A DNA stretch of 64,000 nt from assembly GCF_055900595.2 (NCBI RefSeq), contig NZ_CM148325.1; one strand, 5' to 3'. This document shows, in pieces, positions 20,501-44,966 of the stretch. The translations under genes were made by a program, and so were the position numbers. Positions within the stretch are counted from its first letter, which is position 1, and each line of letters begins with the position of its first letter. Under the pieces are notes generated by a model that searched no databases, was not told the DNA's origin, and was given only the letters and a program-made list of their open reading frames with translations.

Positions 20501-23500
20501 TGTTGCCTGCCGCATCGGTAATGGCCGCAGTGATGGTTTGCGGGCCGCTGCCCAGCGCAGTGACGTCTGCTGCCGGAACGCCGACGCTCCAGTTGCCGGA
20601 GGCGTCCAGCGTGGTGGTATAAGTTTTACTGTTTAACGTGATGGTGATGACATCGCCCGCTTCGCCGCCAGTGCTGGAACCGGAGATCACCAGCGCCTGT
20701 CCGTGTTCGGCGGCGTTAATGATGTCATCGCCGGAGACGGTGTTAATGGTTAAAACTGGCACGGTGAGATCCACCGCCAGGCCGTGAGTGGCGGTCGCCG
20801 GGTTACCCGCTTTGTCGCTTACCGAGGCGCTGACCGTGTACGGGCTGGCGGTCAGATTGCTGAGATCCGCCGTCGGCACGCTGACGCTCCAGCTACCGCC
20901 CGCCTGAACGGTGCCGATGTAAGCCACACCATTAAGCGTGACGGTTACCGTTTGCCCCGCTTCGGCGGTGCTGGTGCCGCTGATGGTTAACGGATTGCCC
21001 GCCTCAGCGGCGTTAAGAATATCGTCTGTGGCAATAGTGTTAATGGCAAGCGTCGGTGCCGTGGCGTCGACGCTGTAGGCGTGGGTTGCCGAAGCCGTGT
21101 TGCCGTTAATATTGCTGACACTGGCCTGTACCGTGGCGTCGCCGTCACGTAACGCGCTGAGATCGGCGGTGGGTAGAGTAGTTGTCCAGCTACCATCGCC
21201 CGCTACGGTAGCAATATAGGTTTTGCCGCCAAAGGTGACGGTGACGGTTTGCCCCGCTTCCACGCCGGAAGTGCTGCCGGAAAGGGTTAACTCTGCCCCT
21301 TTTTCAGCGGCATTAATCACATCGTCGCCGGAAACGGTGTTAATGGAGATCGCCACCGCCGCCAGATCGACGGTGACCGGATGGGTGATGGTGGAGGTTG
21401 TTCCGGCAGTGTTAGTGCCGCTTACCGTGATATCCACCGTCCCCGCAGGCCAGTTGCCCACGTCTGCCGCCGGAACGCCAACGCTCCATGTGCCATCGGC
21501 TAATACTGTCGCAGCGTAAGTGACCGTGTTAATCACCACTGTCAGCGCCGCGCCCGCCGCCAGCCCGCTGCTGCTACCGGTTATCACCAGTGCCTGAGCG
21601 TGCTCGATGCTGTTGACCACATCATCGCCCGCCACGGTATCGACGCGCAGACCCGGCAGGTTGGCGTCTATCACAATATCGCGCGAACCGCTGCCAGTAT
21701 TACCCACGCCGTTGGTTACCGAGGCATTAACTGTCAGTTCGCCATTACCGATAGCCTGAATATCCGCCGCCGGAACGTCCACGCTCCAGCTAAAATTGCC
21801 CTGCACGGTAGCGGTGTAGGTTTTCCCGCCAATCGCCACGGTAACCGTATCGCCCGCCGCCGCACCCGTCACCTGGCCGCTGATGGTCTGCGCCACGCCC
21901 GATTCCGCCGCGTTAATAATATCGTCGGTCGCCACCGGATTAATGGTGACACCCGGCAGCGCGGTATTCACCTGCACGTTATGGCTGGCGGAATTGCTGT
22001 TGCCCGCGCTGTCGGTGACGTTCGCCGTCACCGTGTAACTGGCGTCGCCCAGCGCACCGACGGCAGAGGCTGGCACCGTGGTGCTCCAGTTGCCTGCGGC
22101 GTCCGTCGTGGCGGAGTAATTTTGCCCGTTAAGCGTCACCGTAATTGTGGTGCCTGTTGGCTGATTACTGGTGCCGGAAATTTGCAGATCCGCGCCTTTT
22201 TCCGTGGCATTAATCACGTCATCGCTGGCAATGGGGTTGATGCCAATGGTCGGCGCGGTAAGGTTAACGGTGACCGTGTGCGTCTCGTTGTCGCTGTTGC
22301 CAGCCACATCGGTAACGGTCGCCGTCACGGTTTGCGGGCCGCTGCCCAGCGCAGAGACATCCGCAGCCGGAACGCCGACGCTCCAGTTTCCGGAGGCGTC
22401 CAGCGTGGTAGTGTAGGTTTTATTGTTTAGCGTGACGCTGACGATATCGCCCGCCTCCCCGCCAGTGCTGGAACCGGAAATCACCAGCGCCTGCCCGTGT
22501 TCGGCGGCGTTAATAATATCATCGCCCGCAATGGTGTTAATGGTCAGTACCGGAACGGTGAGATCCACCGCCAGATTATGCGTGGTGCTCGCCGGGTTGC
22601 CCGCTTTGTCATTGACCGTCGCCGTCAGGGTATGGCTGCCATCGGTCAATGCCTCAAGATCTGCCGCCGGAATAGTAATACTCCAGCTGCCGTCCGCCTG
22701 CACTGTTGCCTGATAGGTCTGCACGGTCGGGCTGTTAAGCGTTACCGTAACAATCTGCCCCGCTTCAGCGGTGGTGCTGCCGCTCACCGTCACGCCCGCA
22801 TCGGCTTCGCTGGCGTTGACGATATTGTCGCTGGCGACGGTATTGATAATGATGGTTGGCGCGCTGCTATCGACGCTGTAGTTATGCACCGCCGAGGCGC
22901 TATTGCCATTGATATTGCTGACGCTGGCCTGCGCGGAGGCGCTGCCCTCAGGTAATGCTGCCAGATCGGCGGCAGGAACGGTGGCAGTCCAGCTACCATC
23001 GCTCGCCACGCTGGCGGTGTAATTTTTCCCGCCAAAGTTGACGGTGACGGTTTGTCCTGGCTCTACATTAGTGGTGGTGCCGGAAAGAGTTAAATCAGCG
23101 CCTTTTTCTGCGGCGTTAATCACGTCGTCCGTGGCGATGGTGTTGATTGTGATCGCCGCCGGAGTGAGATCCACCGTTACCGGATGCGTAATGCTCACCG
23201 GATTTCCGGCGCTACTTTCCCCGGATACAGCAATAGACACTGTTCCCGCAGGCCAGGCGCTAACCTGCGCCGCCGTGACGCCCACGCTCCAGCTACCATC
23301 GACCTGCACCGCAGTGGTGTATTCCACATTATTAATCGTAACTGTAAGCGGGGTGCCTTCTGCCAGCCCCGAGCTGCTGCCGGTGACCACCAGCGCCTGC
23401 CCGTGTTCGATGATATTGACCACATCATCGCCCGCTACCGTATCGACCCGCAGACCGGGCAGATTGGCGTCGATGGTGATATCCCGCGTGCCGCTGCCGG

Positions 23501-26500
23501 TGTTGCCGTTTTGATTGGTGACCGAGGCGCTCACCGTTAAATCACCATTACCCAGCGCCTGAATATCCGCCGCCGGAACGCTCACGCTCCAGCTTAAACC
23601 GGCCTGCACGGTGGTGCTGTAAGTATTACCGCCCAGCGTAACGGTTACCGTGTCGCCAACGGCGGCTCCAGTCACCTGCCCGCTGATGGTTTGCGCAGCC
23701 CCCGCTTCGGCGGCGTTAATAATATCGTCGGTTGCCACCGGGTTAATAGTCACGCCGGGCAGCGCGCTGTCGACCAGCACGTTATGGCTGGCGGTGGCGC
23801 TGTTGCCGATATCGCTGGTCACCGCCGCCGTTACCGTATAGTTGGCCTGGCCCAGTGCGGTTACCGCCGATGCCGGAACGGTGACGCTCCAGTTACCGGA
23901 GGCGTCGGTCGTGGTGGTGTAATTTTGCCCGTTCAGCGTCACTGTGATGGCGGTATTAACAGGCTGATCGCTGGTGCCGGTAATTTGAACATCGGCCCCT
24001 TTTTCGCTGGCGTTAATCACATCATCGCCCGCAATGGTGTTAATGCCAATCACCGGCGCGGCGGTATCAACCGTGACGGTCAGTGACTGGCTACCCGTAT
24101 TTCCGGCGCGATCAGTCACTGAAACGTTGATCGGATAACTGCCGTCCACCAGTCCGCTGACAACGGAGGCCGGAACGCCCAGACTCCAGTTGCCGGAAGC
24201 ATCCACCACCGTGGTGTAATCCACATCATTCAGCGTAACGGTGACAATATCGCCCGCCTGCGCGCCGGTGACCGTGCCGCTGATGATTTGCGCCTGGGTA
24301 TGTTCCGGCGTGTTAATGACGTTATCGGTTGCCACCGGATTAATGGTCACCACCGGCGGCGTGGCATCGACCAGCGCCACCCGTGAGACGCTGGTCGGAT
24401 TACCCGCGACATCGTTCACGCTCGCGGTCACCGTGGCGTTGCCGTCAGCCAGTGCGCCAACGTTGGCGGCGGGAACGGTCACGCTCCAGGAGCCAACTGA
24501 CTGCACGACGCCCTGATAGGTCTGCCCATTAAGCGTGACGGTCACCGTCTGCCCCGGCTGAGCGTCGGTGGTGCCAGTGATTTGCAGATCCTGACCACTT
24601 TCGGCGGCGTTAATGATGTTATCAGCCGTCAGCGAGTCGATGCTTAAAGCCGGAGCCAGGCTGTCGACGGTAATGGTGCGGGAGGTGTCGCCTGTGTTAC
24701 CGCTGATATTAGTAACGGTCGCAGTGATTTCCGTCGCACCGTCTGCCTGGCTACTCACCGCGCTGGCGGGAACGGTCAGGCTCCAGCCGCCACCTGCCTG
24801 AACGGTAGTGGTAAAGGTCTGCCCGGCGAATTTCACTACTACGGTTTGCCCGGTTTCCACCAGCTGCGTGGTACCGGTCAGCGTCAATGGCGCGCCTTTT
24901 TCTGCGGCATTGATAATGTCATCGCCGGAGACGGTATTGATGGTAATAAGCACCGCGCCCGGATTAACCTCCACGTTGCGATCGATAGTAACCGGGTTCC
25001 CGGCGGGGTCCGTTGCGCTGGCATTAACCACTATCGTACCCGGCGTCAGTGCCTGTAGATCTGCCGCAGGCACGCCTACCTGCCAGTTGCCGTTGCTGTC
25101 GGTCACCCCCTGGTAGGTGTTGCCGCCGAGCAAAACAGTGACCACTCTTCCGGCGGACAAATTAGTACTGCTACCGGTGATAATCAGGTTTTGCTGCTGC
25201 TCAACGGCATTGATCACATCATCGCCCGCGATGGTGTCAATGCGCAGCCCCGGCAGCCCGGCGCTGATGGTGATATCAAGCGCACTGCTACCCGTATTGC
25301 CATGTACGGTAGTAACCGAAGCATTAATGGTTAACGCACCATCGCCCAGCGCCTGTAAATCTGCCGCCGGAACGTTCACGCTCCAGGTGAGATTGCTGCC
25401 CACCGTCGCCGTGTAAGTATTGCCGCCCAGTTCAATAGTGACCGTATCGCCCTGCGCGGCGCCCACGACGACGCCACTCAGGGTTTGATCTGCTCCCGCT
25501 TCGGCGTTGTTGACAATGTTGTCGCCCGCAAAGGTGTTGATGATCACCTGCGGCAGCACCGTATCGACCAGCAAATTGCTCTGCGCGGTGCCAGTGTTGC
25601 CGGTCACATCGGTGGCGCTGGCAGTGACGGTGTAATTGGTGTTCGCAAGATTAACAACATCACTCACCGGAACGCTCAGCGACCAGACGCCGCCGCTGAC
25701 CTGAGCGCTATACGTGACATTATTCAACGTCACGCTAACTGTACCGCCATCGGGCAAATTGCTGGTGCCGCTTAACGTTAGCGGCTGCTGAGACTCCAAC
25801 GCATTCAGTACGTTATCTCCGCTGATAGCATCTATCGCGACTTGCGGCGCGACGCCCGCCAGGGTGATGTTATGAGTCGCTGTACCGGTATTTCCGGCGG
25901 CATCGGTCACCGTGACGATAATATCGTTAGGGCCACGCGCTAGAGTGCGAGTTACCGCCGGATCAAGCGCCACATTCCAGCTACCGTCTGCCTGCACCAC
26001 GCCGGACAGAACTGTGGCGCCTAACTTGACGGTGACCGTGTCGCCAGGGGAAGCCCCACTGACCCGCCCGGAAATAATCTGCGCCACAATCTGTTCGGCG
26101 GTATTAAGAATATCGTCACCCGCAACGGTGTTAACGCTGACCACTGGCGCACCGGTGTCTACTGTGAAATTTACGCTGTTGCTGGTGGTGTTTCCTGCCC
26201 GGTCGCTGACGCTGGCATTTATGGCGTAGTCGCCATCTGCCAGCGCCTGCACTTCTGCGGCAGGCAGCGTCACTTGCCAGGTTCCGTCACTACCGACAGT
26301 TGCTGTGTGGCTTTTCCCGTTAACGGTCAGTGTTACGGTTTGCCCGGCTTCTGCGTTCGAAGTGCCGCTCACTACCAGCGAGGCATTATGTTCTGAGGCG
26401 CTGACAATGTTGTCCTGAGCGATGGTGTTGATTGCAAGTGTTGGCGGCTGGGTATCGACCGTTAGCAGCTGCGCTCCGGTGACCGTATTGCCCGTGGCAT

Positions 26501-27560
26501 CTTTCCCACTGACCAGCACCGCCTGATTGCCTTCGCCTAATGTCTGGGCGTCGGCGGTCGGCACCTGCACGCTCCACGCGCCGTTAGCGCCTACGCTGGT
26601 GGTGTAAGTTTTGCCGTTTAGCGTGACGGTGAGTTCCGTTCCCTGTGCCAGATGGCTACTGGTGCCAGAAAGGGTAAACCCGGCGGCCTGTTCGCTGGCG
26701 TTAATGATGTTATCGCCTGCGGTGGTGGCGAGCTGTACGGCGGCCTGACTATTGTCGATGGTTAACGTTATCGACCCGGCGTTGGTAATGGTGCTGCCGA
26801 CGATTTGCACCACTGACCAGGTATGTTCGCCCGCGCTTTGTGTGGGCAAATCGACGCTCCAGCGTCCATCGCTACCGACCTGGGTACTGGCGATGGTGTC
26901 ACCATTGCTGTCTTTAATCTGGATGGTCGCCCCCGCCTGTCCGCTGCCGCTAAAGGTTGGCGTAGTGTCATCGGTGATATCGTTGGCGGAAAGAATACCG
27001 CGTTGATCGCCCTGATTATCGGTTACCAAAAACGATGGAGTGGCATTGCCGGGTTCGGCTGGCGGAGGGTTGTTAACCACTTCAGTTTTTGAGTCATCAT
27101 CACCACCGCTTGCCAGTAAAGCGCCAAGCGCGCCACCACCTACCGCGGCACCCGCTAACCATCCCCACGGGAAGGCACTGGTCTGAGCGACGGTATCAAG
27201 ATACGGCGCAATGCTTTCAATTGCGGTAGTCTGAGCGGTCAGCTCCACGGGCGCTAATCCACCCGCCGCGGTATCGGCAAAGGTGACATGAGTCAGCTGT
27301 TGCCCATCGGCAAACACCAGTTCGGATTGCTCGCTGGTATTTGCCGCTTGCAGGAAATAACCATTACAGCGGATCACCGTGCCGTCCTGCATATAAATCA
27401 GCAGATCGTTTCCATCGCGCACATAACGCGCAACGGCAGAGGCCTGAGCATGAACCTGCACCACGGAGGGCTCATAAATGACAACCGTAACGTCGCCAGG
27501 ATTAATCAGCGTTTGTTTGACGGATGTTTTTCGCGAAATAACATCAATAATCAGGCTCAT
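8583..27560 (-). CDS. giant T1SS-secreted adhesin (6,325 aa): LapA-like N-terminal module, ~45-50 Ig-like repeats, FG-GAP-like calcium-binding repeats, RTX-type GG repeats and C-terminal secretion signal
   Basis: single 18,978-nt ORF; ~100-aa repeats each with the ...INT(V/I)AGDD(I/V)INAAE... core; DFDGDGDMD / DWDHDGLMD / DYDWDGAVD motifs; GGNDTLNIGNGGHDTL near C-terminus; flanked by T1SS genes. Confidence 0.9.
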   Translation of the reverse strand: MSLIIDVISRKTSVKQTLINPGDVTVVIYEPSVVQVHAQASAVARYVRDGNDLLIYMQDGTVIRCNGYFLQAANTSEQSELVFADGQQLTHVTFADTAAGGLAPVELTAQTTAIESIAPYLDTVAQTSAFPWGWLAGAAVGGGALGALLASGGDDDSKTEVVNNPPPAEPGNATPSFLVTDNQGDQRGILSANDITDDTTPTFSGSGQAGATIQIKDSNGDTIASTQVGSDGRWSVDLPTQSAGEHTWSVVQIVGSTITNAGSITLTIDNSQAAVQLATTAGDNIINASEQAAGFTLSGTSSHLAQGTELTVTLNGKTYTTSVGANGAWSVQVPTADAQTLGEGNQAVLVSGKDATGNTVTGAQLLTVDTQPPTLAINTIAQDNIVSASEHNASLVVSGTSNAEAGQTVTLTVNGKSHTATVGSDGTWQVTLPAAEVQALADGDYAINASVSDRAGNTTSNSVNFTVDTGAPVVSVNTVAGDDILNTAEQIVAQIISGRVSGASPGDTVTVKLGATVLSGVVQADGSWNVALDPAVTRTLARGPNDIIVTVTDAAGNTGTATHNITLAGVAPQVAIDAISGDNVLNALESQQPLTLSGTSNLPDGGTVSVTLNNVTYSAQVSGGVWSLSVPVSDVVNLANTNYTVTASATDVTGNTGTAQSNLLVDTVLPQVIINTFAGDNIVNNAEAGADQTLSGVVVGAAQGDTVTIELGGNTYTATVGSNLTWSVNVPAADLQALGDGALTINASVTTVHGNTGSSALDITISAGLPGLRIDTIAGDDVINAVEQQQNLIITGSSTNLSAGRVVTVLLGGNTYQGVTDSNGNWQVGVPAADLQALTPGTIVVNASATDPAGNPVTIDRNVEVNPGAVLITINTVSGDDIINAAEKGAPLTLTGTTQLVETGQTVVVKFAGQTFTTTVQAGGGWSLTVPASAVSSQADGATEITATVTNISGNTGDTSRTITVDSLAPALSIDSLTADNIINAAESGQDLQITGTTDAQPGQTVTVTLNGQTYQGVVQSVGSWSVTVPAANVGALADGNATVTASVNDVAGNPTSVSRVALVDATPPVVTINPVATDNVINTPEHTQAQIISGTVTGAQAGDIVTVTLNDVDYTTVVDASGNWSLGVPASVVSGLVDGSYPINVSVTDRAGNTGSQSLTVTVDTAAPVIGINTIAGDDVINASEKGADVQITGTSDQPVNTAITVTLNGQNYTTTTDASGNWSVTVPASAVTALGQANYTVTAAVTSDIGNSATASHNVLVDSALPGVTINPVATDDIINAAEAGAAQTISGQVTGAAVGDTVTVTLGGNTYSTTVQAGLSWSVSVPAADIQALGNGDLTVSASVTNQNGNTGSGTRDITIDANLPGLRVDTVAGDDVVNIIEHGQALVVTGSSSGLAEGTPLTVTINNVEYTTAVQVDGSWSVGVTAAQVSAWPAGTVSIAVSGESSAGNPVSITHPVTVDLTPAAITINTIATDDVINAAEKGADLTLSGTTTNVEPGQTVTVNFGGKNYTASVASDGSWTATVPAADLAALPEGSASAQASVSNINGNSASAVHNYSVDSSAPTIIINTVASDNIVNASEADAGVTVSGSTTAEAGQIVTVTLNSPTVQTYQATVQADGSWSITIPAADLEALTDGSHTLTATVNDKAGNPASTTHNLAVDLTVPVLTINTIAGDDIINAAEHGQALVISGSSTGGEAGDIVSVTLNNKTYTTTLDASGNWSVGVPAADVSALGSGPQTVTATVTDVAGNSDNETHTVTVNLTAPTIGINPIASDDVINATEKGADLQISGTSNQPTGTTITVTLNGQNYSATTDAAGNWSTTVPASAVGALGDASYTVTANVTDSAGNSNSASHNVQVNTALPGVTINPVATDDIINAAESGVAQTISGQVTGAAAGDTVTVAIGGKTYTATVQGNFSWSVDVPAADIQAIGNGELTVNASVTNGVGNTGSGSRDIVIDANLPGLRVDTVAGDDVVNSIEHAQALVITGSSSGLAAGAALTVVINTVTYAATVLADGTWSVGVPAADVGNWPAGTVDITVSGTNTAGTTSTITHPVTVDLAAVAISINTVSGDDVINAAEKGAELTLSGSTSGVEAGQTVTVTFGGKTYIATVAGDGSWTTTLPTADLSALRDGDATVQASVSNINGNTASATHAYSVDATAPTLAINTIATDDILNAAEAGNPLTISGTSTAEAGQTVTVTLNGVAYIGTVQAGGSWSVSVPTADLSNLTASPYTVSASVSDKAGNPATATHGLAVDLTVPVLTINTVSGDDIINAAEHGQALVISGSSTGGEAGDVITITLNSKTYTTTLDASGNWSVGVPAADVTALGSGPQTITAAITDAAGNSDDASRTVTVNLTSPTIGINTIATDDVINATEKGADLQITGTSNQPAGTTITVTLNGQNYTATTDSSGNWSATVPASAASALGEANYTVTASVTDTAGNSNSVSHNVLVNSALPGVTINAVATDDIINAAEAGSVQTISGQVTGAAAGDTVTVTLGGNTYTATVQANLSWSVSVPAADIQALGNGDLTVNASVTNVVGNSGSGSRDITIDANLPGLRVDTVAGDDVINSIEHNQALVITGSSTGLTAGTALTVVINNVTYAATVLADGTWNLGVPAADVSNWPAGTVDITVSGTNSAGTTSTITHPVTVDLAAVAITINTLSGDDVINAVEKGETLVVSGSTSGVEAGQTVTVTFGGKNYTTTVEANGSWTVNVPPADLAALPDGAGNVQASVSNINGNSAQADRAYSVDATAPLVTINTIASDDILNVSEAGAGITISGTTTAQAGQTLTVTLNNNTYQTTVQADGTWSVNVPATDLSGLTASSYTVTATVSDKAGNPASADHALAVDVTAPDLTINTVAGDDIINAIEHGQALVVSGTSTGAAAGDVVTVNLNGKNYTTTLDASGNWSVGIPAADVTALATGSQTITASLSDRAGNSDSTTHDVTVDLSGPTLTINTVSGDDIINNTEKTQDLIISGVSSGLAAGTTVTVMLNGLAYSATTDGSGNWSVTVPASAVGALGEAVYQISASATDSAGNNGSTTHTVNVESLLPGVIINTVAGDDIINAAEIAVNQTLSGQVTGTAAAGDSVTVTLGGNQYIATVQPDLSWSVSVPAADLQALGNSELTISASVTNSANNTGTATHDIVIDANLPGLRVDTVAGDDVINSIEYTQALVVTGSSTGLAAGAALTVVINSVTYGATVLADGTWSVGVPAADVANWPTGTVNIAVSGTNTAGTTTSISHPVTVNLAAVAITINTLSTDDVINAAEKGTDLQLSGTTSGVEAGQTITVIFGGKSYTTTVAADNTWGLTIPAADLATLPDGAANIQASVSNVAGNNAQATHVYSVDATAPSVTINTIASDDILNAAEAGSALTISGTSTAEAGQTVTVTLNGINYSGNVQADGSWSVSVPTGDLADLTASPYTVSAAVSDKAGNPTSATHNLTVDLAAPVVTINTVAGDDIINATEHAQAQIISGSATGATTGNTVSVTIGTTTYTTVLDANGNWSIGVPASVISALAQGDVTITATVTDSAGNSGTASHTVSVALGAPILAINTIAVDDIINATEKGADLSISGTSNQPAGTQVTVTLNGQNYTTTADASGNWSVTVPASAVGTLGEATYTVTAAATDVDGNSGSASHNVQVNTALPGVTINVVATDDIINAAEAGATQTISGQVTRAAAGDTVTVTLGGATYTATVQADLSWSVDVPASALQALGNGELSISASVTNSVGNTGNGTREITIDANLPGLRVDTVAGDDVVNIIEHGQALVITGSSSGLAVGSNVTLTINGQTYVAAVLADGTWSVGVPAVDVSAWPAGAVTITASGSTTAGNSVSVTHPVTVDLSAVAVSINAITTDDVINAAEKGAALTLSGSTSGVEAGQTVTVTFGGKTYTASVAANGSWSTTVPAADMAALRDGDASAQASVSNVNGNSATTTHAYSVDATAPTVTINTIAGDDILNAAEAGAALTITGSSTAEAGQTVTVTLNGANYTGTVQTDGSWSISVPPADLSALTASNYTVSAAVSDKAGNPTSVNHNLTVDTSVPVVTINTVAGDDVINATEHAQAQIISGSATGAATGNTVTVTIGTNTFTTVLDASGNWSVGVPASVVSALANGTVTINASVTDAAGNSGNASHQVTVNTGLPTITFNAISSDNVLNADEKGQPLTISGSSTGLATGAQVTVTLNGHNYSATTDAAGNWTLTVPVSDLAALGQANYTVSASATSAAGNTASSQANLLVDSGLPGVTINTVADDDIINAAEAGADQTISGGVTRAAAGDTVTVTLGGNTYTATVQGNLSWSVSVPAADLQALGNGDLTITASVTNANGNTGSGTRDITIDANLPGLRVDTVAGDDIVNSIEHGQALVITGGSSGLNAGAVLTVTINSVAYSTTVQADGSWSVGIPAANVSAWPAGALTVDVTGQSSAGNPVSVSHPFTVDLTAVAISINTVASDDVINAAEAGSALTLSGTGTNFAAGTVVTVLLNGKGYSATIQSNGSWSVNVPAADVAALADGTSYTVSASAQDSAGNSATASRSVAVDLTAPIISINTVSTDDRLNAAEQQQPLTLNGSTSAEVGQTVTVTFGGKTYTATVAANGTWALNVPAADLASLGQGAQTITASVNDRAGNPGQTTHALTVDTVAPTVTIATVAGDDIINNAEQLAGQTISGTTTAEAGQTVSVTFNGQNWTATVGSGGSWSVFIPAQQFAGLSDGSYTISATVSDQAGNPGSASRGVTLNGDVPTVTINTLAGDDVVNAAEHGASLVISGTTTAPVGQTLTLTLNGKTYTTTVQTGGSWSYTLGSADVTALADGNAYVINASVSNAIGNIGSSNHTITVDLSAPAMGINIDSLQADTGLSASDFITSVSPVVVNGSLTAALASNETAQISIDGGVTWSTLTVTGTTWRYNDSRTLTDGNYLYQVRVIDAAGNVGATDSQNVVIDTTAPDPAVKTIAISAITTDTGLITNDFVTSDTTLAVSGTLGSALSAGEFAQISIDGGTTWQNLAVNGLTWTYLDGRTLTDGNYNYQVRVIDTAGNIGATASQIVTVDTTAPLASKTIVIAGISDDTGLSSSDFVTRDTTLTVRGTLGAALAADERAQISLDGGVTWATLTVIGTSWSYADGRTLTDGTWNYTVRVVDLAGNVGQTATQNVVVDTISPEAAKSITITGISDDTGASSSDFITSDTTLTVRGVLGAALGANEFAQISTDNGATWVNVTVAADGLNWTYVDGRTLTNGTTTWQVRVVDLAGNVGATGSQSAQIDTVNPAQVLTIASISTDTGSSATDFITSDTTLTLTGSLGAGLASGEVAQISLDGGATWTTLTTNGTQWTYTDSRTLTDGSYVYQVRVLDLAGNTGPVVSKTVVVDTINPTATPTIVSYTDDVGQRQGTFSNSQATDDTTPLLNGVLSAPLASGEVVYLYRNGLLLGAVTMVGALNWTYSDSGLVSGAYTYSARVVDLAGNITSSSDFVLTVDTSIPTTLAQITNQTTRDTTPIISGVLTAALASGQYVEVVINGKTYTSQPGGAVVVDPAHNTWYVQLPDTDALAASATAYNVTAQVKSSAGNGNTANVSTGTVTVNAAIDYTPTWTTTSKSTAWGLTYGLDNHGMWTVLANQQIMQSTDPLTWSKTALTLVQSGNNYATSSIADYNRNGTGDLFITRDDYGTGYINGFTNNGDGTFSSAIQVNVGTLTWYGSIVAFDKEGDGYLDFWIGDAGGPDSNTFLWNNAGTLTGNSTTANNGGSATVGGAVTGYLSLNEGSGVDLNNDGRIDLVQHTFNLNNNFTLSSLISQGNGTFVWGQNTVNTFLSSPGSGGNSTSVSMTWADFDGDGDMDLFLPASQGRANYGSLLFNTNGVLGSPVAVGATATTYASQFSLAVDWDHDGLMDIARIAQTGQSYLYTNVSNASNWTQSALGGSQSGTTSGVAAMDYDWDGAVDVLVTKQSGSVFLIRNTNTVSYGTSLHLRITDPNGINVYYGNTVKLYNSAGVLVATQIINPQSGMGVNDTSALVNFYGLNAGETYNAVLIKSTGTTASNIDQTVNTSWGGLQATDATHAYDLSAEAGTASNNGKFVGTGYNDTFFATAGTDTYDGSGGWVYSSGTGTWLANGGMDVVDFRLSTVGVTANLSVTTAQATGFNTSTFTNIEGISGSNFNDTLTGSSGDNQLEGRGGNDTLNIGNGGHDTLLYKLLNASDAAGGNGSDVVNGFTVGTWEGTADTDRIDIRELLQGSGYTGNGKASYVNGVATLDAQAGNIGDFVKVTQSGSDTIVQIDRDGTGGGFATTNMVTLTGVHTDLATLLANHQLMVV

Positions 27561-37782: not shown

Positions 37783-40272
37783 ATGGAGTTCGTCAGAGAC
37801 TGGCAAAAACCGCGCCCCGCTATCGGGCGCGAAGGCTTACCCGTACCTGAAACCGCACTGGATACCATCCTGAAGTGTTACCGCGCAGACGAAGAGCGCG
37901 CACTGCACGCTGAAGAGCAGGGTCATCCGCTTGCGGGCACAACCATCGGTAACGCGATCGACAAGTGGGAAGGCGCACAGGAGCGCCAGGAAGAGGCCAT
38001 CACGCTCACACAGGAAGCGAGAAGACACCCGCCCACCCTTATTGAGGAAACCCTCAAAGAGCTGGACACCCTGCCCAAGTGGTTGAGGCTGCCGCTGATT
38101 AAGCACCTGAACTTTTTAAGGCGCAAACAGGAGGACGAACAACAGAAAGGCAAGCGCGGCAAGGACACCCGCAAATATGAGCGCTTCCTGAAAAACGGCA
38201 TCCCCGCACGTCTTCGCCGTATTCGTGAGATTAACGCTCGCTTTGCACCGTTAAGTTTTCAGGCCGCTGCCATGCGCGAGAGTCTGGAAGAACTGATCAC
38301 ACTGCCGAACCTGAGCCGTGAACGCATCCAGAAAATAGCCGTACTGCTTGCCAGCGCCGTTAAAATGCATCTTGCCGACGCAATGGACAAGGCCCGCGAA
38401 ATAACAGGGAACGACAAAGACGACAACCTGAACAACTGGCTGATTGCCTACCAGTATATTGGTCGCCGTGTCCTGAAGCTGGGGATCACCCCACCATACT
38501 GGAGCGCCCTTGAACTCCGCCCCGACCGCAGAAGCCCCCCGGACGTGACACTGGTTCCGGGCGCTGTTTTGCGCCTGAACGACGCCGAATGGTGGAATAA
38601 AAAACTTCGCCAGATGCACGACGTCTGGCGTGAGGAACTTTTACGTGCAGCGGGCCTTGTATCCCGCCAGACCTCCGTTTATGTGAGCCGTGAAGCGCTG
38701 GCAGACTTCCGCGAAAAACAGGCCCGTACCCGCGATTTTCTCAAAGCGCACGACGTGGAGAACGAAGACGGCGAACGCATCAGTCTGGAAGATATCTACT
38801 ACGCCAGTACATCCAACCCGCATAACCGCCGCAACGAGATGATGGCGTGCGTTAAGGGAATGGAGCTTATCGCACAGGAACGCGGCGACGTGGCCTTCTT
38901 CGTCACGGTCACAGCCCCGTCTCGTTTTCACAGCGTCACCGACGCAGGCACGCTGAACCCGAAATACAAAGGCGCAACCGTAAAGGACGCCAGCGACTAT
39001 CTGGTTTATAACTTCTTCGCCTCCGCCCGCAAACTCATCAAAAAAGAGAAGCGGGGCTGGTACGGCATTCGCACCGTGGAGCCTCACCACGACGGCACGC
39101 CCCACTGGCACATGCTGGTATTCACAAGCCCTGAGAACGAAGAGCGCATCACGGAAATCATGTGCAATGCCGCCATTCGCGAAGACCGGGCAGAGCTGGG
39201 CGACGACATCACCCCGCGCTTCAAGTGCGAGAAGATAGATCCCGAAAAAGGCACGCCAACCAGCTACATCGCCACCTACATAGGCAAAGGCATTGACGCC
39301 GCTGCATTCGGCGACACGGATCCAAAAACAGGTAAACCGCCCGTTGACCACGAAAGCGGAAAACCTATGGCGGACACCGTGGAAAACGCCGTCGCCTGGG
39401 CGCGCCTGCATCGCATTCGCCAGTTCCAGTTCTTTGGCCTCCCTTCCCGTCAGGTGTGGCGTGAGTTCCGCCGCCTTGCCGGACAAATGGCACGCAACCC
39501 GAAGGGGCCGCAGGCACTGACCAACCCCAAAGCCGACGCCCTCCTTGTTGCAGCCGATACGGGGTGTTTTGCCAGCTACATCATGCATCAGGGCGGTGTG
39601 CTCATTCCCCGTAGTGAATATCTGGCCCGCACAGCCTACGTCACCGCAGAAGAGCCGAACAATTACAGCGAATTCCCCGAGCGCATTTACGGTATCCGCA
39701 TGCCGGAACTGGGGGAGGACTTCACGTTATGCACCCACCCGGAAGAGTGGAAAATCGTCAGAAAGGAACCGGAACCAGACAACCGCACGGGCGAGGGTTT
39801 TGACCTTCAGGGCGGCCCCGCCGCCCCTTGGACTCGTGGCAATAACTGTCACCCTGACGAAAAAACAACCAACAACAGCACACAAACAGAACAGTCAGAG
39901 TGGGCAAAACTGCCCCCCTTACCCCCATCGTCGGACGGTTTTGTGAGCTGGTTTAAGTCGCTTAAGAGGCCGGACAGGAAAAAACTACAAAGATTGCTCA
40001 AAAAACGCACCGAAGAGAGTCGCCAGAACGCCAGCGGCGGCACCGACACACCCACCGACACCATTAACCTGGGCGTTGTGCTGCCGGAACTGCCGGAAAT
40101 CGTGCAAGTCCGCCGCGATCTGGAAGCGCTGGGCGCGGACTTCCCCGAAGCAATGGCCCATTCCGTCTTTATGGGTGCCCGCGTTCGTCTGGGTGACGGT
40201 CGCACCGTTCACCGCGACGAGCAGACCGGGCGCATCACCGTCACCAGTCTGCAACCGGAGGCGAAACCATGA
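37783..40272 (+). CDS. A: P2 gpA-type rolling-circle replication initiator
   Basis: 829 aa; position after the early genes and length fit the P2/186 A protein; HxH-type motif region (HWHMLVF). Confidence 0.85.
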   Translation: MEFVRDWQKPRPAIGREGLPVPETALDTILKCYRADEERALHAEEQGHPLAGTTIGNAIDKWEGAQERQEEAITLTQEARRHPPTLIEETLKELDTLPKWLRLPLIKHLNFLRRKQEDEQQKGKRGKDTRKYERFLKNGIPARLRRIREINARFAPLSFQAAAMRESLEELITLPNLSRERIQKIAVLLASAVKMHLADAMDKAREITGNDKDDNLNNWLIAYQYIGRRVLKLGITPPYWSALELRPDRRSPPDVTLVPGAVLRLNDAEWWNKKLRQMHDVWREELLRAAGLVSRQTSVYVSREALADFREKQARTRDFLKAHDVENEDGERISLEDIYYASTSNPHNRRNEMMACVKGMELIAQERGDVAFFVTVTAPSRFHSVTDAGTLNPKYKGATVKDASDYLVYNFFASARKLIKKEKRGWYGIRTVEPHHDGTPHWHMLVFTSPENEERITEIMCNAAIREDRAELGDDITPRFKCEKIDPEKGTPTSYIATYIGKGIDAAAFGDTDPKTGKPPVDHESGKPMADTVENAVAWARLHRIRQFQFFGLPSRQVWREFRRLAGQMARNPKGPQALTNPKADALLVAADTGCFASYIMHQGGVLIPRSEYLARTAYVTAEEPNNYSEFPERIYGIRMPELGEDFTLCTHPEEWKIVRKEPEPDNRTGEGFDLQGGPAAPWTRGNNCHPDEKTTNNSTQTEQSEWAKLPPLPPSSDGFVSWFKSLKRPDRKKLQRLLKKRTEESRQNASGGTDTPTDTINLGVVLPELPEIVQVRRDLEALGADFPEAMAHSVFMGARVRLGDGRTVHRDEQTGRITVTSLQPEAKP

Positions 40273-40679
40273 ACCGTTATCATTGTGTACTGCCGCGCCA
40301 CTACTTCGGTCAGATTATGCGCTCGCGTATTCCGGCGGTCACGCTGCGAAACCTGAGCACGGTACCGCAGCCGGGCGATGAGCTGGAAATCGCCGTAGCA
40401 GGCCCTGACCGTTCAGCCAGCTGCGTGACCGCCGACGTGCTGAACGCCGTGCCCGTAGGTGGTGACTGGCTGGTTGCCATCCGCTTCCGCCAAGACCCGT
40501 TCGCACCTGAACCGCTCACCCCCGCAGGCCGCATCATGCAGAACTGGCGGGATGAACGCGCGAAGGCGAACTGCGAAAAACTGATTAACAGGATTGCCAC
40601 GACAAACCGACATGCCGCGCTGGCGCGCCGGATATACCCCGCAAAATCAACACAACCAACAGGAGTAAAAGGCCCATGA
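40269..40679 (+). CDS. hypothetical 136-aa protein translationally coupled to A (position of P2 orf91)
   Basis: ATGA overlap with A stop. Confidence 0.5.
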   Translation: MNRYHCVLPRHYFGQIMRSRIPAVTLRNLSTVPQPGDELEIAVAGPDRSASCVTADVLNAVPVGGDWLVAIRFRQDPFAPEPLTPAGRIMQNWRDERAKANCEKLINRIATTNRHAALARRIYPAKSTQPTGVKGP

Positions 40680-40822
40680 AAAGAATCGCCGGAACTGACT
40701 ACCAGGAGCTGCTTAAAGCGGTGGAAAACTACCGTTCAGCGCTGGTGTGGTGTGAGATTAAGCCCTGTGACCCGGGAGCAGTTAAGGATTGCAACCGGCG
40801 CGTGAGGACATTCAGCGCGTAA
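40676..40822 (+). CDS. hypothetical 48-aa Cys-containing peptide, coupled to upstream ORF
   Basis: hand translation MKRIAGTDYQELLKAVENYRSALVWCEIKPCDPGAVKDCNRRVRTFSA; ATGA overlap. Confidence 0.3.
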   Translation: MKRIAGTDYQELLKAVENYRSALVWCEIKPCDPGAVKDCNRRVRTFSA

Positions 40823-40937
40823 TTGGCTACCGCTATGTAGCAGCCATTATTGACCTTGTGAATGAACTGGAGGAAGCAAAAGAGCGCATCGCAGAACTGG
40901 AAACCCAGAATAACCCCAACCAGCAGGAGCAGAAGCC

Positions 40938-41519
40938 ATGAAAAAAAGAGACCTTAAAAAACACCTCCGTAGTCAGATTGAATATTTTGAAGATAAGGCT
41001 GCAAAAACAGGGCTTTCCGGTAAAGAGAACATGAACTTCAGGGCACACCTCCTGACGTGGAGAATACTTAATATCACGAGAGATGGACTTGAGCCGCTAG
41101 CCTACCTGATGGAAGATGGCGAGACCCTCATACAGGATCCCAATGTGGAAATGGAGAAGAAAGAGATGGACCTGCCGATAATCGGGCTGTTTGAGATCCC
41201 TGAACTAATAGGACGTTATGAACACGAAAACCGCCAGCTTGCCGCCTTTTTATCCGTGACAATCGAACGACTGGAAACCGTGAAACACGATATTCCGTTC
41301 GGTTTTGATGAGCGCACCGAGGGTGATTTGCTCAGCTTTCAGATTGCCCTGAACGTGCTCACCGCAGAGCCTTCTGCGTGGCTACGCCCGGAACGGCACC
41401 ACAACACGTTCGCATTTACCGTAATTCCCTACGATGCCGCACAGGAAGAGGATAACTTCGAGACCAGGCTTGTTCCCCTGTATCAGATTGCGGATTTCTA
41501 TACGTTGATTCGCTGGTAA
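40938..41519 (+). CDS. hypothetical 193-aa acidic protein (prophage cargo)
   Basis: ORF followed by a strong intrinsic terminator; no recognisable family. Confidence 0.55.
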   Translation: MKKRDLKKHLRSQIEYFEDKAAKTGLSGKENMNFRAHLLTWRILNITRDGLEPLAYLMEDGETLIQDPNVEMEKKEMDLPIIGLFEIPELIGRYEHENRQLAAFLSVTIERLETVKHDIPFGFDERTEGDLLSFQIALNVLTAEPSAWLRPERHHNTFAFTVIPYDAAQEEDNFETRLVPLYQIADFYTLIRW

Positions 41520-41534
41520 TCCCCCACAGTAAAA

Positions 41535-41557
41535 CAGCCCGACCGGGCTGTTTTTTT
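41535..41557 (+). terminator. rho-independent terminator
   Basis: cagcccgaccgggctg hairpin followed by T7. Confidence 0.6.
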
Positions 41558-41614
41558 ATCTGATATTTTTGATAACGTTGACCGGCTCATTAGCAAAAAA
41601 GCAAAGAGGAAAAC

Positions 41615-42001
41615 ATGAAAGCCCGTATCGGGATCATCCCGGAAAAAGCCCTGCGCCAGCACCTGATTGATATTGCCAGAGGGAAGCGAAAACCACAGCC
41701 CGACGAGCCAAAGGTATGGTTTTCATCCATCAATGCGGCAGGCCAGACGCTGAGCAATGAAAATATCGCCCTTCTGCGTCTTATGAATGAGGAGAAGCCG
41801 CAGACCATGACCGCACTTGCGGAGTTATCCGGCAGAAAACTGAGCAACCTGTCTGTAACCCTGAAAATGCTGAGCAGCTACGGTTTTGTCAGTCTGGAAA
41901 AGAAAGGGAATACTGTACACCCGAAAGCACTTTTTACCGATTTTGAAATCATCGTTGATCCGTCCGTGGGTTCAGTACATCGCGCCACCGCCCGGCCCTG
42001 A
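41615..42001 (+). CDS. standalone winged-helix DNA-binding protein (128 aa)
   Basis: C-terminal half TMTALAELSGRKLSNLSVTLKMLSSYGFVSLEKKG has wHTH character; RBS agaggaaaacATG; flanked by terminators on both sides. Confidence 0.5.
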   Translation: MKARIGIIPEKALRQHLIDIARGKRKPQPDEPKVWFSSINAAGQTLSNENIALLRLMNEEKPQTMTALAELSGRKLSNLSVTLKMLSSYGFVSLEKKGNTVHPKALFTDFEIIVDPSVGSVHRATARP

Positions 42002-42012
42002 AGTGCGCAATA

Positions 42013-42040
42013 AACAGCCCCGTTCGGGGCTGTTATTTAT
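42013..42040. terminator. bidirectional terminator between convergent genes
   Basis: cagccccgttcggggctg hairpin with T-rich flank. Confidence 0.55.
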
Positions 42041-42411
42041 TCCAGAATCAGCTGTTCAGGTGTGCAGCCGTACAGTCTGGCAAGGCGCTCAATATTTGCC
42101 CTGCGCGGGCGTTCTGTTCTTTCGAATTCGGACACGGTAGCCTGCCTGATACCCAGCGCATCCGCCACCTGCTTTTGCGTCATTCCGCGATAGATTCGCC
42201 ACGCCGCCTGCATGGTGCAGCCACGTTCCGAGAGGATGTTGACCACCTCGTTGGGATACAGCGTATCAGGCGATGCACTCGGTTCGTTCTGGACGTCCTC
42301 GTAGAGTTCGTCAAGGTCGCTGTCTCCTGCCAGTTTTTCAAACAACGCCACTGGCAGAATGACGGATACCCTGTTACCCGCACCGTCAGTAATAAACTGA
42401 ATCTGACTCAT
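42037..42411 (-). CDS. XRE-family HTH antitoxin (HigA-like)
   Basis: C-terminal MTQKQVADALGIRQATVSEFERTERPRRANIERLARLYGCTPEQL is a Cro/C1-type HTH; adjacent to RelE/ParE toxin gene. Confidence 0.7.
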   Translation of the reverse strand: MSQIQFITDGAGNRVSVILPVALFEKLAGDSDLDELYEDVQNEPSASPDTLYPNEVVNILSERGCTMQAAWRIYRGMTQKQVADALGIRQATVSEFERTERPRRANIERLARLYGCTPEQLILE

Positions 42412-42484
42412 TTGCCCCTCCTGCTAAACATCGGTTTATTTTTTAATTTGCTGCCGGTGATAAAAAACGGCGGGTCGCCCCGCC

Positions 42485-42757
42485 TTAGTATGTTGTCGAG
42501 GTTCTCCGCTGAATACGGAGGATCCTGATAACCACTATCTGCCCTCCCTCAATCGTGAACCTGACACGGTAATGATTTACCCTGAGTCTGTACTCCCCGC
42601 CCGAGTCAGTGAGCTTTTTAATATCCAGATTCTGGAACTTCGGATAGCCATAAAGCGCGTTAACTTTCTCGCGTAAGGATTTCTGATCCCTCGCTGGCAA
42701 AACCCGTAAATCTTTGATTGCCCGAGGGGTCCACATGATTTCAGTCGTCATAAACAC
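42485..42757 (-). CDS. RelE/ParE-family type II toxin
   Basis: ~90 aa with the ...EYRLRVNHYRVRFTIEGGQIVVIRILRIQRR core typical of RelE/ParE toxins. Confidence 0.7.
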   Translation of the reverse strand: MFMTTEIMWTPRAIKDLRVLPARDQKSLREKVNALYGYPKFQNLDIKKLTDSGGEYRLRVNHYRVRFTIEGGQIVVIRILRIQRRTSTTY

Positions 42758-43340
42758 ACCGGAAGCAAATTATTAAAGAGCCGTGCCCGCTGGCACACCT
42801 TAAATATAGGTTTTAACCCCTATATTGTCAAACAAAATCCCTATATCATGAAGTAAAAAAGCACCTCCCGCGACCTCCCTTTCCGGTGCACGAAAGTGCA
42901 CAAATTTGCACAATTTTTTTGAACGACTTTTTGCCCTTCCGGCCCGTGTGGCGTCTGGATCCGTCGGGGATCCGTGCGTGCACGAAAAAAGGCCTTTTTC
43001 TGCGCGCAGGTGACGGGGGAACAGCCCGCGTTTCAGGGGGTAAATAGCATTCCCTGAACGATGTTGCAGTGACACAACAGAATGGCTGTATTTCTCACGC
43101 TGAGCGTGAAAAAGACGTAAGGGCTTTTGATTTGATGGGGTGAAAGATAAGGCCGTCAAAATCGCACTGAGGCAGCGAGAATATGTCGTCAGAGTTGCGG
43201 GGTTGCGTAAGCATCCGCCCGGCGATGATGGCTACAGGGCTGGAGATGTTGTGAAATTATCTGAAGGAATAACCAGCTTGCAGGAGAACCCGGGCAAAGT
43301 CAGAATAGCGGCAGGCATCAACTCAAAAGAGGATAATGTC

Positions 43341-43844
43341 ATGAGCCACTTTAATGATTTATGCCAGATCAATCGTGAAGCTGAAGAAAAACGCGCTGAG
43401 GCAGCTCAAATTTTGCGGGATGAAGCGGCAAGGCTGATTGATTTCTATGAAGAATGGCTGGGGCTTCCATCCATGTACTGGGAAGACGATGATGGCGACC
43501 TGCACCGCTACGTGGAGACAGGCTTGCCATGTAAGACAGCGGCGGATTTTAGTCCTCTTTCAGTCCACAATATCGCATCTGCACCAGACAATATTTTCCG
43601 CATGGCCGTACGAACCTGGGTTAAGTCATCTGACAGCAGCTACCCGGTAAGCGTGGTTATTGCACTTGAATTATATTCAGTAGATGCGGAACGGGTGTCT
43701 CTGAGAGTCCGGGTGGAAGACGATATTTCTGTTCGCGTATTTATCAATAAACCCAGCGAAGAAGCCTGGGGCGATGTTGTTATGCACATGAAAAAGCACA
43801 TCGCTAATCACCTGAAAAAGCGAGCGCCATCAGCACTTCGTTAA
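43341..43844 (+). CDS. hypothetical 167-aa protein (prophage cargo); alternative GTG start at 43140
   Basis: ATG at 43341 with aaagagga RBS; followed by bidirectional terminator before Q. Confidence 0.5.
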   Translation: MSHFNDLCQINREAEEKRAEAAQILRDEAARLIDFYEEWLGLPSMYWEDDDGDLHRYVETGLPCKTAADFSPLSVHNIASAPDNIFRMAVRTWVKSSDSSYPVSVVIALELYSVDAERVSLRVRVEDDISVRVFINKPSEEAWGDVVMHMKKHIANHLKKRAPSALR

Positions 43845-43859
43845 GCAGAGCTGGAGAGT

Positions 43860-43884
43860 CGGGGCATAAATTTTTTATGCCCCG
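43860..43884. terminator. bidirectional terminator between the cargo gene and Q
   Basis: cggggcat-aaatttttt-atgccccg hairpin. Confidence 0.5.
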
Positions 43885-43910
43885 GCGAAGCAGCAGACAA
43901 GCGAAGCGCG

Positions 43911-44966
43911 TCAGGATATGGGCCGGGTGTCTAACAGTGCGTAAGGGTTAAAACGGATCACCTCTTCGCCCAGCCAGTCGTTGACGTGTTTCATTGCTTC
44001 CATGACGGGCATCAGTTCGTTAATGGCAAACACACGGGCTGCCTTCTCCACATCCCCGAATGACCCCTTCTCACCCGGCATGGCCCCCATCAGCTGAGGT
44101 GGCACGCGGTGCACAGCCAGCACGTCATCACGCGATGCGGCCTTGACGTTCATGAACTCATCCTTTGCGGTGATTTGCTGAAACGGCAAAATCTGTACGC
44201 CATCCTTACCACCTCCCGCCGCGTGGATGAGCAGATTTTTAAACGCCCCGCCACCACGCGCGCTTTGCAGTGTTTCCCGCAGTTTTTCCATGCTTTCACG
44301 GTCAACCTGCGCCGCACCGATGTAGACAATACAGCCCGCGTGTGAGCCGTTATCGTAGTAGAGCTTGCGGAAGATATCGGCGGAATGTGACAGGCTGGCA
44401 GACAGCAGGCCGCCCAGGTAATCCGGCATCCCGTAAATCTCCTGGTTGATATCAGGATTCATCAGGTGGCATATCGTCCCCTCACGAAAGCGGTACTCTT
44501 CCTGTCCTTCCTGTATATACCACCATGATTTCATATCGCTGCCACGTCGCATGTATTTCGCCAGCGCCCGGCGCAGGGCCAGCGGTTCGCCAAGCATGTT
44601 GCGCCGCAGCTCAAGACAGGCATTACCGAACACAAACCAGTCCATCGCCACCCCGGCGAACTCCTGGCGGGACAGCAGAGGATGTGGAATATAGCAGCCC
44701 AGCAGCACATTACGTTTGAAGCTGAGCGCCGACTGGTGCCAGGACGTCTGGCGGGCAGCCCGTGCCAGTCCGTACCAGTCAACGGGCGTTTCAAACCACC
44801 GCCCGTTGTCGGCGCAGTACATGCTGTCCAGCAGGTCGGCCCCTGACAGCCGGTAAGGTCCTTCAAACGTGAAGGCACTCAGTGTCGGGTCGCTTCGCAG
44901 GGAATCCGCAAGGCTGCCCTGCGCTGCGCGGGCGTTCGTACGTCGTTGTTTATTTTTTCTGCTCAT
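43911..44966 (-). CDS. Q: portal protein (P2 gpQ-like)
   Basis: 351 aa; position downstream of terminase P in the leftward P-Q operon. Confidence 0.85.
   Translation of the reverse strand: MSRKNKQRRTNARAAQGSLADSLRSDPTLSAFTFEGPYRLSGADLLDSMYCADNGRWFETPVDWYGLARAARQTSWHQSALSFKRNVLLGCYIPHPLLSRQEFAGVAMDWFVFGNACLELRRNMLGEPLALRRALAKYMRRGSDMKSWWYIQEGQEEYRFREGTICHLMNPDINQEIYGMPDYLGGLLSASLSHSADIFRKLYYDNGSHAGCIVYIGAAQVDRESMEKLRETLQSARGGGAFKNLLIHAAGGGKDGVQILPFQQITAKDEFMNVKAASRDDVLAVHRVPPQLMGAMPGEKGSFGDVEKAARVFAINELMPVMEAMKHVNDWLGEEVIRFNPYALLDTRPIS

Follow-up and report, generated by a model that had tools for sequence, protein, structure and literature searches.

The interval between the replication gene A and the portal gene Q of P2-like prophages (gpA-gpQ) is a described defence hotspot that adjoins cos, with 1,650 gene arrangements and a role in defence that has been validated experimentally (Rousset et al. 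2022, PMC9122126). "Swap" dynamics have been described for the hotspots of P2 and P4 (preprint 10.64898/2026.02.27.708500). Another described system of relevance here is TumE-TumA, a toxin-antitoxin family that acts on translation and has been confirmed by experiment (Durairaj et al. 2023, PMC10584680). We analyzed the gpA-gpQ variable region of a P88-like prophage of E. coli (Xuanwuvirus, P2 family) in a window of 64,000 nt (contig NZ_CM148325.1, assembly GCF_055900595.2), and all coordinates are positions in this window unless another locus is named. Our results suggest that the interval is probably a mosaic of independent modules, shaped by insertion, deletion and recombination, and not one system. 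The arrangement is new, but loci of this kind have been described before, and it does not represent a new kind of system.

Modules of the A-to-Q interval and their relatives

Comparisons with related loci (numbered L001 onward) delimit an insert with orf88 and orf193 (40696-41552), a relE-xre module (41990-42811) and an orf167 module (43265-43847). The last of these is missing from P88 and the relE-xre module is missing from L019. The insert, which carries orf88, orf193 and a terminator, occupies the place held in relatives by the tumE promoter and most of tumE: homology between the window and L002 ends at 40695 and restarts exactly at 41553, leaving 857 bp specific to the window (orf88, orf193 and the terminator) and 429 bp specific to L002 (the promoter region and most of tumE). 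Relatives present TumE-TumA alone, TumE-TumA together with RelE-Xre, or homologues of orf193 with neither a toxin-antitoxin pair nor orf167. A first-pass annotation, made from the sequence alone, had viewed the interval as one compact multi-unit defence arrangement. This view does not agree with the relatives, in which the units occur independently; the gene set is not kept as a unit across related prophages and its modules appear in every combination.

Several scars were found at the module borders. L002 retains the first seven codons of orf88, and in L003 the terminator 3' of the orf193 homologue is joined to an xre stub of ~85 nt, where positions ~6585-6675 of L003 look like a hybrid of two terminators. 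Together with the near-copy terminators of the window, this hybrid points to recombination at terminators as a way in which modules are deleted or swapped. L019 and L020 (GCA_964249815.1 and GCA_958430555.1) possess TumE-TumA and lack relE-xre, and at locus positions 5747-5851 they retain the -35 box of the relE promoter and half of its palindromic operator, which indicates that they are deletion derivatives. Repeated rounds of deletion, and of recombination between short stretches of shared sequence, thus appear to have rebuilt the locus, in agreement with the swap dynamics of P2 and P4 hotspots.

All of the ORFs that had been listed for the interval are present where they had been placed, and they are genuine genes in that each has conserved homologues of equal length elsewhere. 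The proposal that A-to-Q is a variable cargo site also holds, based on its flanks, on the differences among relatives (L012, L013, L019 and P88 carry differing cargo between A and Q) and on the published hotspot. PHROG profile matches identify the large terminase among the flanking genes, beside gpA and the portal, and gpA bears the RefSeq name 'replication endonuclease' in a relative 99.5% identical. The GC content falls from ~0.60 in A and orf136 (0.580 and 0.603, respectively) to ~0.48-0.52 across 40.6-43.8 kb. The whole interval was found at >=99% identity in only 3 of 5426 complete E. coli genomes, and six more of these genomes present a variant spanning 77% of it in which tumE replaces orf88-orf193.

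Among the closest described counterparts is the gpA-gpQ (old/tin) hotspot of P2-like phages, with which the locus shares its flanks A and Q and a content that is highly variable among close relatives. As for old-tin of P2, one leftward operon (here relE-xre) is read from a promoter at the end that is probably cos-proximal; this promoter has the same place and orientation as that of old and tin, which are transcribed leftward near cosR. In contrast to the P2 hotspot, the interval contains no Old, no Tin and no system recognized by PADLOC, and its cargo consists of toxin-antitoxin modules and small uncharacterised proteins. It further differs in that a conserved non-coding stretch splits it into two slots, the second of which, next to Q, holds orf167. 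The absence of the classic systems had been proposed from the sequence and is borne out by PADLOC-DB v2, which returned no defence-system match for orf136, orf88, orf193, RelE, orf167 or their homologues; its only matches were generic helix-turn-helix (HTH) ones for orf128 and Xre. The features of the interval are listed in Table 1.

Table 1. Positions of the features found between genes A and Q and of the two flanking genes
Feature	Position	Strand	Evidence or remark
gpA replication endonuclease, left flank	37783..40272	+	phrog_91 'nicking at origin of replication', E 6e-222
orf136, coupled translationally to A (ATGA overlap)	40269..40679	+	phrog_14984, E 4e-41
orf88, split by 1-bp deletion near 40797	40676..40941	+	Alignment with L001: one G missing
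orf193, last gene of the A-coupled chain	40938..41519	+	ORF with conserved homologues; own 3' terminator
Intrinsic terminator of the A-orf136-orf88-orf193 chain	41531..41554	+	10-bp stem, then T run
tumE remnant, last ~20 codons, in frame, overlapping tumA start	41553..41618	+	LSDIFDNVDRLISKKAKRKT vs TumE ...LLSDFFDNVDRLINEVTKGKA
orf128 (tumA), orphaned winged-helix antitoxin of the TumE-TumA family	41615..42001	+	Pfam HVO_A0114 PF25212, E 3e-16
Bidirectional terminator between tumA and xre	42013..42034	.	9-bp stem
Xre-type antitoxin, HTH in C-terminal half (residues 72-121)	42037..42411	-	Pfam HTH_3, E 8.6e-11; phrog_7241, E 1.3e-29
RelE/ParE-family toxin, upstream of antitoxin	42485..42757	-	Pfam ParE_toxin, E 4.7e-9; phrog_1213 RelE-like toxin, E 1.2e-14
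Sigma-70 promoter of relE-xre (TTGACA, 17 nt, TATATT)	42803..42831	-	11/12 consensus matches
Conserved non-coding stretch of P88-like phages; probable cos region	42887..43264	.	87-93% identical in P88 and P88_4B11 despite differing cargo
Weak promoter-like site for orf167 (TTGCAG, 17 nt, CAGAAT)	43278..43306	+	By eye; under scan threshold
orf167, separate cargo unit, convergent with Q	43341..43844	+	Module (indel) 43265-43847
Bidirectional terminator shared by orf167 and Q (43861-43883), then conserved GGCGAAGCAGCAGACAAGC (43884-43902)	43861..43902	.	88-94% identical beside Ogr or Q in L003, L007
gpQ portal, right flank	43911..44966	-	phrog_68 portal protein, E 1.5e-146

The A-coupled chain and orf167

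Gene A heads the chain A-orf136-orf88-orf193, which is coupled stop to start and closed by a terminator. The coupling had been recognized before, but the chain had been taken to end at orf48, which is a frameshift fragment: a change from CGGGC to CGGC at 40796-40797 cuts an 88-aa ORF, of which 'orf48' is the 5' part. This ORF is unbroken in L001, L016 and L017, all three complete genomes with the same arrangement, and in its intact form its start codon shares bases with the stop codon of orf136, as does its own stop codon with the start codon of orf193. The 1-bp deletion is either a true mutation, which made orf88 a pseudogene, or an artefact of the sequencing of the window. A separate observation concerns L016 (E. 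coli GF60, NZ_CP172185.1; 99.7% identical), where A is annotated as two overlapping coding sequences at locus positions 1-573; A is apparently frameshifted in this genome and its prophage copy may be defective.

Although orf136 had been counted as cargo, it is a backbone partner of A, which it resembles in GC content. Its homologues of 134-143 aa stand directly 3' of A in other P2-like prophages (85% identical in L003 and ~45% in L007 and L012), the A proteins of which are just ~56-58% identical over the aligned region. No match was found for orf136 in a Pfam search. In P2, an unrelated small gene (orf91) is likewise coupled to A.

A consensus scan of the + strand over 40000-41886 returned no sigma-70-like site and hence none upstream of orf88-orf193, so the simplest reading is that these two genes would be transcribed with the early replication operon. 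They would be produced with this operon in lytic growth and, because it is coupled translationally to the operon, orf193 is probably made in lytic growth rather than in the lysogen. The same terminator hairpin is found 3' of the orf193 homologue in L003. The first-pass annotation had described an acidic 193-aa protein with its own terminator: the terminator stands, but the protein is only mildly acidic (pI 5.0, net charge -11) and its gene is part of the replication operon and not an independent unit.

Relatives of orf193 are scarce, with two clusters among 5.8 billion proteins and four representatives among 1.8 billion. No match was found in Pfam (even at E 10), NCBIfam or PADLOC, and its N-terminal half has detected relatives solely within its own small family. 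In P2-like prophages, full-length homologues (53% and 36% identical) always follow A-orf134/136 and precede Ogr or Q, and their loci contain no toxin-antitoxin pair and no orf167 nearby. The AF2 model of orf193 is weak and Foldseek found no structural neighbour for it; profile searches of the orf193 and orf167 families against Protein Data Bank (PDB) sequences gave nothing significant. The two halves of the protein look alike by eye (..EPLAYL and ..EPSAWL), and we rejected an internal duplication on the basis of an alignment no better than those of shuffled sequences (z = -0.6).

The C-terminal half of orf193 has wider connections. P88-like prophages encode, in the context A-ParM-ParR-orf95-Rrf2-Ogr-Q, a 95-aa protein that is a clear homologue of residues 96-193 (z = 15.8; 0 of 1000 shuffles). 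This protein is encoded in the same A-to-Q interval and on the same strand as orf193, but it is half the size and has other neighbours. With 2544 blocks it is also very common, in contrast to the rare orf193, whose cluster comprises 42 sequences. The ParM/ParR-like partition genes and the Rrf2-family regulator between A and Ogr/Q were observed in L078-L080 and in P88 itself (L004), and they raise the question of plasmid-type maintenance of these phages. A pattern search of viral contigs with the central motif ..DIPFG[FL]DE..IAL..L.AEP.AW yielded 44 loci. About half of them are P2-like and carry the gene between A and Ogr/Q; the remaining loci present no P2-type genes, and the two that we inspected more closely are lambdoid or P22-like. 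In the lambdoid contigs, the orf193 module stands at the N-terminal end of mosaic proteins; one such protein has DUF551 and adjoins an Ead_Ea22 gene in the erf-to-int region.

These mosaic proteins belong to the early-region 'ea' (exo-xis) proteins that lambdoid and P22-like phages encode in the neighbourhood of Ea22 and of DUF551 proteins such as YfdS, and their N-terminal module (profiles phrog_660, phrog_60 and phrog_5117) is matched by residues ~104-148 of orf193 (..DIPFGFDE..IAL..LTAEPSAW); the match of orf193 to phrog_660 is weak. Unlike in the ea-region proteins, the module of orf193 is located mid-protein, behind the N-terminal half peculiar to its own family, and the gene belongs to a P2-type replication operon. 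A related pattern is seen for orf88. Its intact protein matches the N-terminus of phrog_16519 (E 1.8e-9), a 324-position profile whose later parts are matched by module-bearing proteins, and an orf88-like sequence adjoins a module-bearing gene in L070, a contig without P2-type genes. These results suggest that orf88-orf193 fall within a large, modular and uncharacterised group of accessory proteins that temperate enterobacterial phages encode in their early regions.

It is possible, if somewhat unlikely, that orf88 and orf193 are lytic-cycle accessory factors, acting in host takeover or in the lysis-lysogeny decision like the lambdoid exo-xis/ea proteins, and that they have no part in defence. 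The coupling to the early replication operon is consistent with such a role, as are the module shared with the N-termini of ea-region proteins that adjoin Ead_Ea22 and DUF551 genes, the orf88-like sequence of L070 and the phrog_16519 profile that orf88 shares with module-bearing proteins; Ea22 itself biases phage towards lysogeny (PMC10834534). However, Pfam searches found neither an Ead_Ea22 (PF13935) nor a DUF551 (PF04448) domain in orf193, the shared module has no known activity, and the N-terminal half has no detectable relatives beyond its own small family.

The gene orf167 constitutes a separate unit that would represent a self-transcribed moron. A site similar to its promoter-like sequence (TTGCCA, 17 nt, CAAAAT) stands upstream of the 31%-identical homologues in L030-L033. 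Its position next to Q is kept across P2-like phages down to this level of identity, and it is also found in relatives with quite different upstream cargo. Its structure model is of at best moderate confidence and its fold matches only uncharacterised proteins across Proteobacteria.

We consider it unlikely that at least one of orf193, orf167 or the orf88-orf193 pair represents new anti-phage defence or superinfection-exclusion cargo, the role that the first-pass annotation had favoured. Several lines of evidence are in line with such a role: the hotspot is experimentally validated for defence (PMC9122126), the GC content is low (0.48), and orf193 and orf167 match no known family or fold. In addition, orf167 possesses a promoter-like site and a terminator of its own and has diverged much further than the neighbouring portal gene (31% vs 67-71% identity), and random uncharacterised loci of the P4 hotspot were defensive in six of the eight cases tested (preprint 10.64898/2026.02.27.708500). 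Other findings speak against it. PADLOC found no match for the candidate proteins or their homologues; orf193 is coupled to the lytic replication operon with no promoter found, and the proteins related to it are ordinary mosaic proteins from the early regions of P2-like and lambdoid phages. Moreover, related prophages do not share these genes as a set, and orf88 is frameshifted in the window copy.

tumA, the tumE remnant and relE-xre

The gene orf128 had been described as a monocistronic winged-helix gene and, with orf193 and orf167, as one that could not be named. No function could be named for orf193 or orf167, but orf128 is nameable: it matched HVO_A0114 in Pfam, and it is the surviving, orphaned antitoxin (TumA) of a decayed TumE-TumA module and not a self-sufficient unit. 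Its RefSeq name is 'HVO_A0114 family putative DNA-binding protein'. In relatives (six E. coli genomes and many assemblies), tumA is coupled translationally to an upstream gene for a 124-aa TumE of the PF20126 (DUF6516) family, and intact PF20126 and PF25212 pairs were found in L018-L023. The identity of TumE is based on precomputed Pfam PF20126 assignments and RefSeq names; NCBIfam and PHROG searches with the TumE of L002 returned no match. Window orf128 is 91% identical to the TumE-coupled TumA of L002, with 11 differences in the first 67 residues and the remaining 61 identical.

What is left of tumE in the window corresponds to codons ~104-123. A tblastn search with TumE matched this stub at 41553-41612 (E 0.002) and found no intact tumE in the whole 64-kb window. 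The promoter region that precedes tumE in L002 is also missing, and tumA sits 60 nt behind a strong terminator. Because the toxin gene is a 20-codon stub and the promoter is gone, the window copy cannot act as a toxin-antitoxin system; it resembles the TumE-TumA superfamily in its HVO_A0114-type winged-helix protein and differs from it in the lack of an intact toxin gene and promoter. The terminator that follows tumA (42013-42034) is nearly a copy of the hairpin at 41531-41554. A scan against Rfam returned nothing above threshold, with a sole match to the gyrA RNA (22 bits against a gathering score of 45) on the terminator hairpin.

Most likely, tumA is a relic that would at most confer immunity to TumE toxins brought by related elements. 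That the orphan gene has been kept as useful, neutralising the TumE of incoming or co-resident P2-like elements as a form of anti-addiction or anti-abortive-infection immunity, seems improbable to us. In the window and the three complete genomes alike, the ORF is intact and has a good ribosome-binding site; sister prophages commonly carry TumE-TumA (the identical TumE protein was found in 662 blocks of the collection), and orphan antitoxins with anti-addiction roles are known for ccd. However, the native promoter is deleted, a strong terminator lies upstream, and the arrangement is rare and recent (three genomes, all >=99% identical). Because of this rarity and recency, an intact tumA ORF says little on selection, and the 11 differences among the first 67 residues make it uncertain whether the TumA of the window would neutralise the TumE of L002. 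We give similarly little credence to a broader proposal, in which orf167 would found a new single-gene family for lysogenic conversion or phage exclusion and the orphan TumA would additionally serve as portable immunity against the TumE of competing elements.

Finally, a toxin swap with a shared antitoxin, in which orf193 would be a new toxin that replaced TumE and is neutralised by orf128, is extremely unlikely: orf193 stands exactly at the place of TumE in relatives, directly upstream of the same antitoxin gene, and TumE toxins pair with diverse unrelated antitoxins (PMC10584680), but a terminator and the tumE stub separate it from tumA, its homologues in L003 and L007-L010 have no HVO_A0114 neighbour, hhalign detected no similarity between orf193 and TumE, and the gene belongs to the A operon and is not bicistronic with tumA. 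We also rejected orf167 and orf193 as divergent TumE toxins (hhalign probability <1%) and, based on the same terminator, stub and homologue loci, orf193 as a toxin partner of TumA.

The remaining toxin-antitoxin genes appear to form an intact type II operon on the opposite strand, driven by a near-consensus promoter. The first-pass annotation had proposed a RelE/ParE-Xre pair in this orientation, and the Pfam ParE_toxin and HTH_3 matches and the similarity of RelE to PDB entry RelE3 (3bpq, E 3.7e-4) support it. RelE is 88 aa long from an ATG at 42751, the start used by RefSeq in two relatives, or 90 aa long from a GTG at 42757. For Xre, a RelB-like match was found with just E 0.028 (residues 5-28). 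The promoter carries an 8-bp inverted repeat (AATATAGG/CCTATATT), a palindrome read from the sequence that is likely the operator. The pair resembles RelBE, HigBA and ParDE in combining a small basic toxin of the ParE/RelE fold (pI 10.6) with an acidic HTH antitoxin (pI 4.7) and in the palindrome of its promoter, and it shares the toxin-first gene order with HigBA. It is unlike these systems in the terminator-like hairpin and the 21-nt inverted repeat that bracket relE and in that its activity is a predicted one.

This repeat (86% complementary, 42439-42459 and 42757-42777 on the - strand mRNA) brackets the relE ORF. In the predicted fold of the mRNA, the intergenic region between relE and xre is paired with the stretch just 5' of the relE start, enclosing the whole toxin ORF (minimum free energy -131 kcal/mol, z = -4.3). 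Such a structure could control the translation of the toxin or of the antitoxin; all copies are nearly identical.

Of the modules, only the relE-xre pair allows a mechanism to be put forward with some confidence, with its toxicity, neutralisation and autoregulation being predictions. RelE would be an mRNA-cleaving translation inhibitor restrained by a labile Xre antitoxin, and Xre would also repress the relE-xre promoter through the palindrome. The pair would be expressed in the lysogen, where it would act to stabilise the prophage and might also abort infections by other phages; in P2, old-tin has this role at the same site.

Several considerations weigh against our interpretation of the interval as a mosaic of independent modules with the roles given above. 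Defence is a proven function of this hotspot, and an antiviral role is predicted for 15-32% of the uncharacterised proteins of the P2 hotspot (preprint 10.64898/2026.02.27.708500), so that orf193 or orf167 may conceivably act in defence, albeit with a low likelihood. Confidence in the structure models is low to moderate (pLDDT 65, for orf193, and 69), and toxicity, neutralisation and expression timing are all deduced from sequence features. The tumA ORF is intact in all four copies and could be functional via read-through of the terminator, and an internal promoter for orf88-orf193 is possible, as a consensus scan is insufficient to exclude one. Lastly, the NCBIfam model RelE_StbE (TIGR02385) gave RelE 22.6 bits, below its cut-off of 27.9, so that membership in the superfamily holds but the activity could be of either the RelE type or the ParE type.

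Candidate cos sites and significance of the locus

The conserved non-coding stretch at 42887-43264 is shared with P88 and P88_4B11, whose cargo comprises ParM/ParR-like genes and others, and it is probably the cos region. GTGCAC repeats are present at 42885-42911, and their P2 analogue consists of GTGCAT repeats just before cosR. In addition, the linear record LR595891 ends at a position equivalent to 42931 of the window and starts at 42932. Neither the P2-type cos 19-mer (allowing up to three mismatches) nor any BLAST match to the cos region of P2 was found in the window.

The element next to Q could be an alternative cos candidate or a conserved recombination joint for cargo exchange. It consists of a hairpin and the sequence GGCGAAGCAGCAGACAAGCG(A/T)AGCGCG, and it borders the stop codon of Q or of Ogr, as seen in the window (43861-43902), in L003 (6712-6777) and in L007 (6565-6632); the portal proteins of the prophages that share it are ~33% identical to that of the window. 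In L007, an element of this type makes up nearly the whole 62-nt gap between the orf193 homologue and Ogr. We found no phage record that starts or ends at this element (43845-43915). Two cos candidates are thus retained, one near 42931/42932 and one at 43884-43902.

Two further observations were made beyond the interval of the window. L013 (NZ_AP045789.1) possesses a leftward three-gene operon at locus positions 4391-6919 (- strand), in the hotspot position of relE-xre, that encodes hypothetical proteins of 459, 114 and 269 aa; this operon is a better-looking candidate for an uncharacterised defence system than any gene of the window. Outside the prophage, a single ORF of 6325 aa spans 8583-27560 on the - strand of the window and is followed by same-strand ORFs of 720 aa (6417-8579) and 391 aa (5245-6420).

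The locus shows in one place how a P2 hotspot is rebuilt, through module swaps at shared terminators and short junctions that leave readable scars. It also defines two small and well-delimited uncharacterised families, orf193 and orf167. Finally, the window offers a natural orphan TumA with which to ask whether antitoxins outlive their toxins for a reason.

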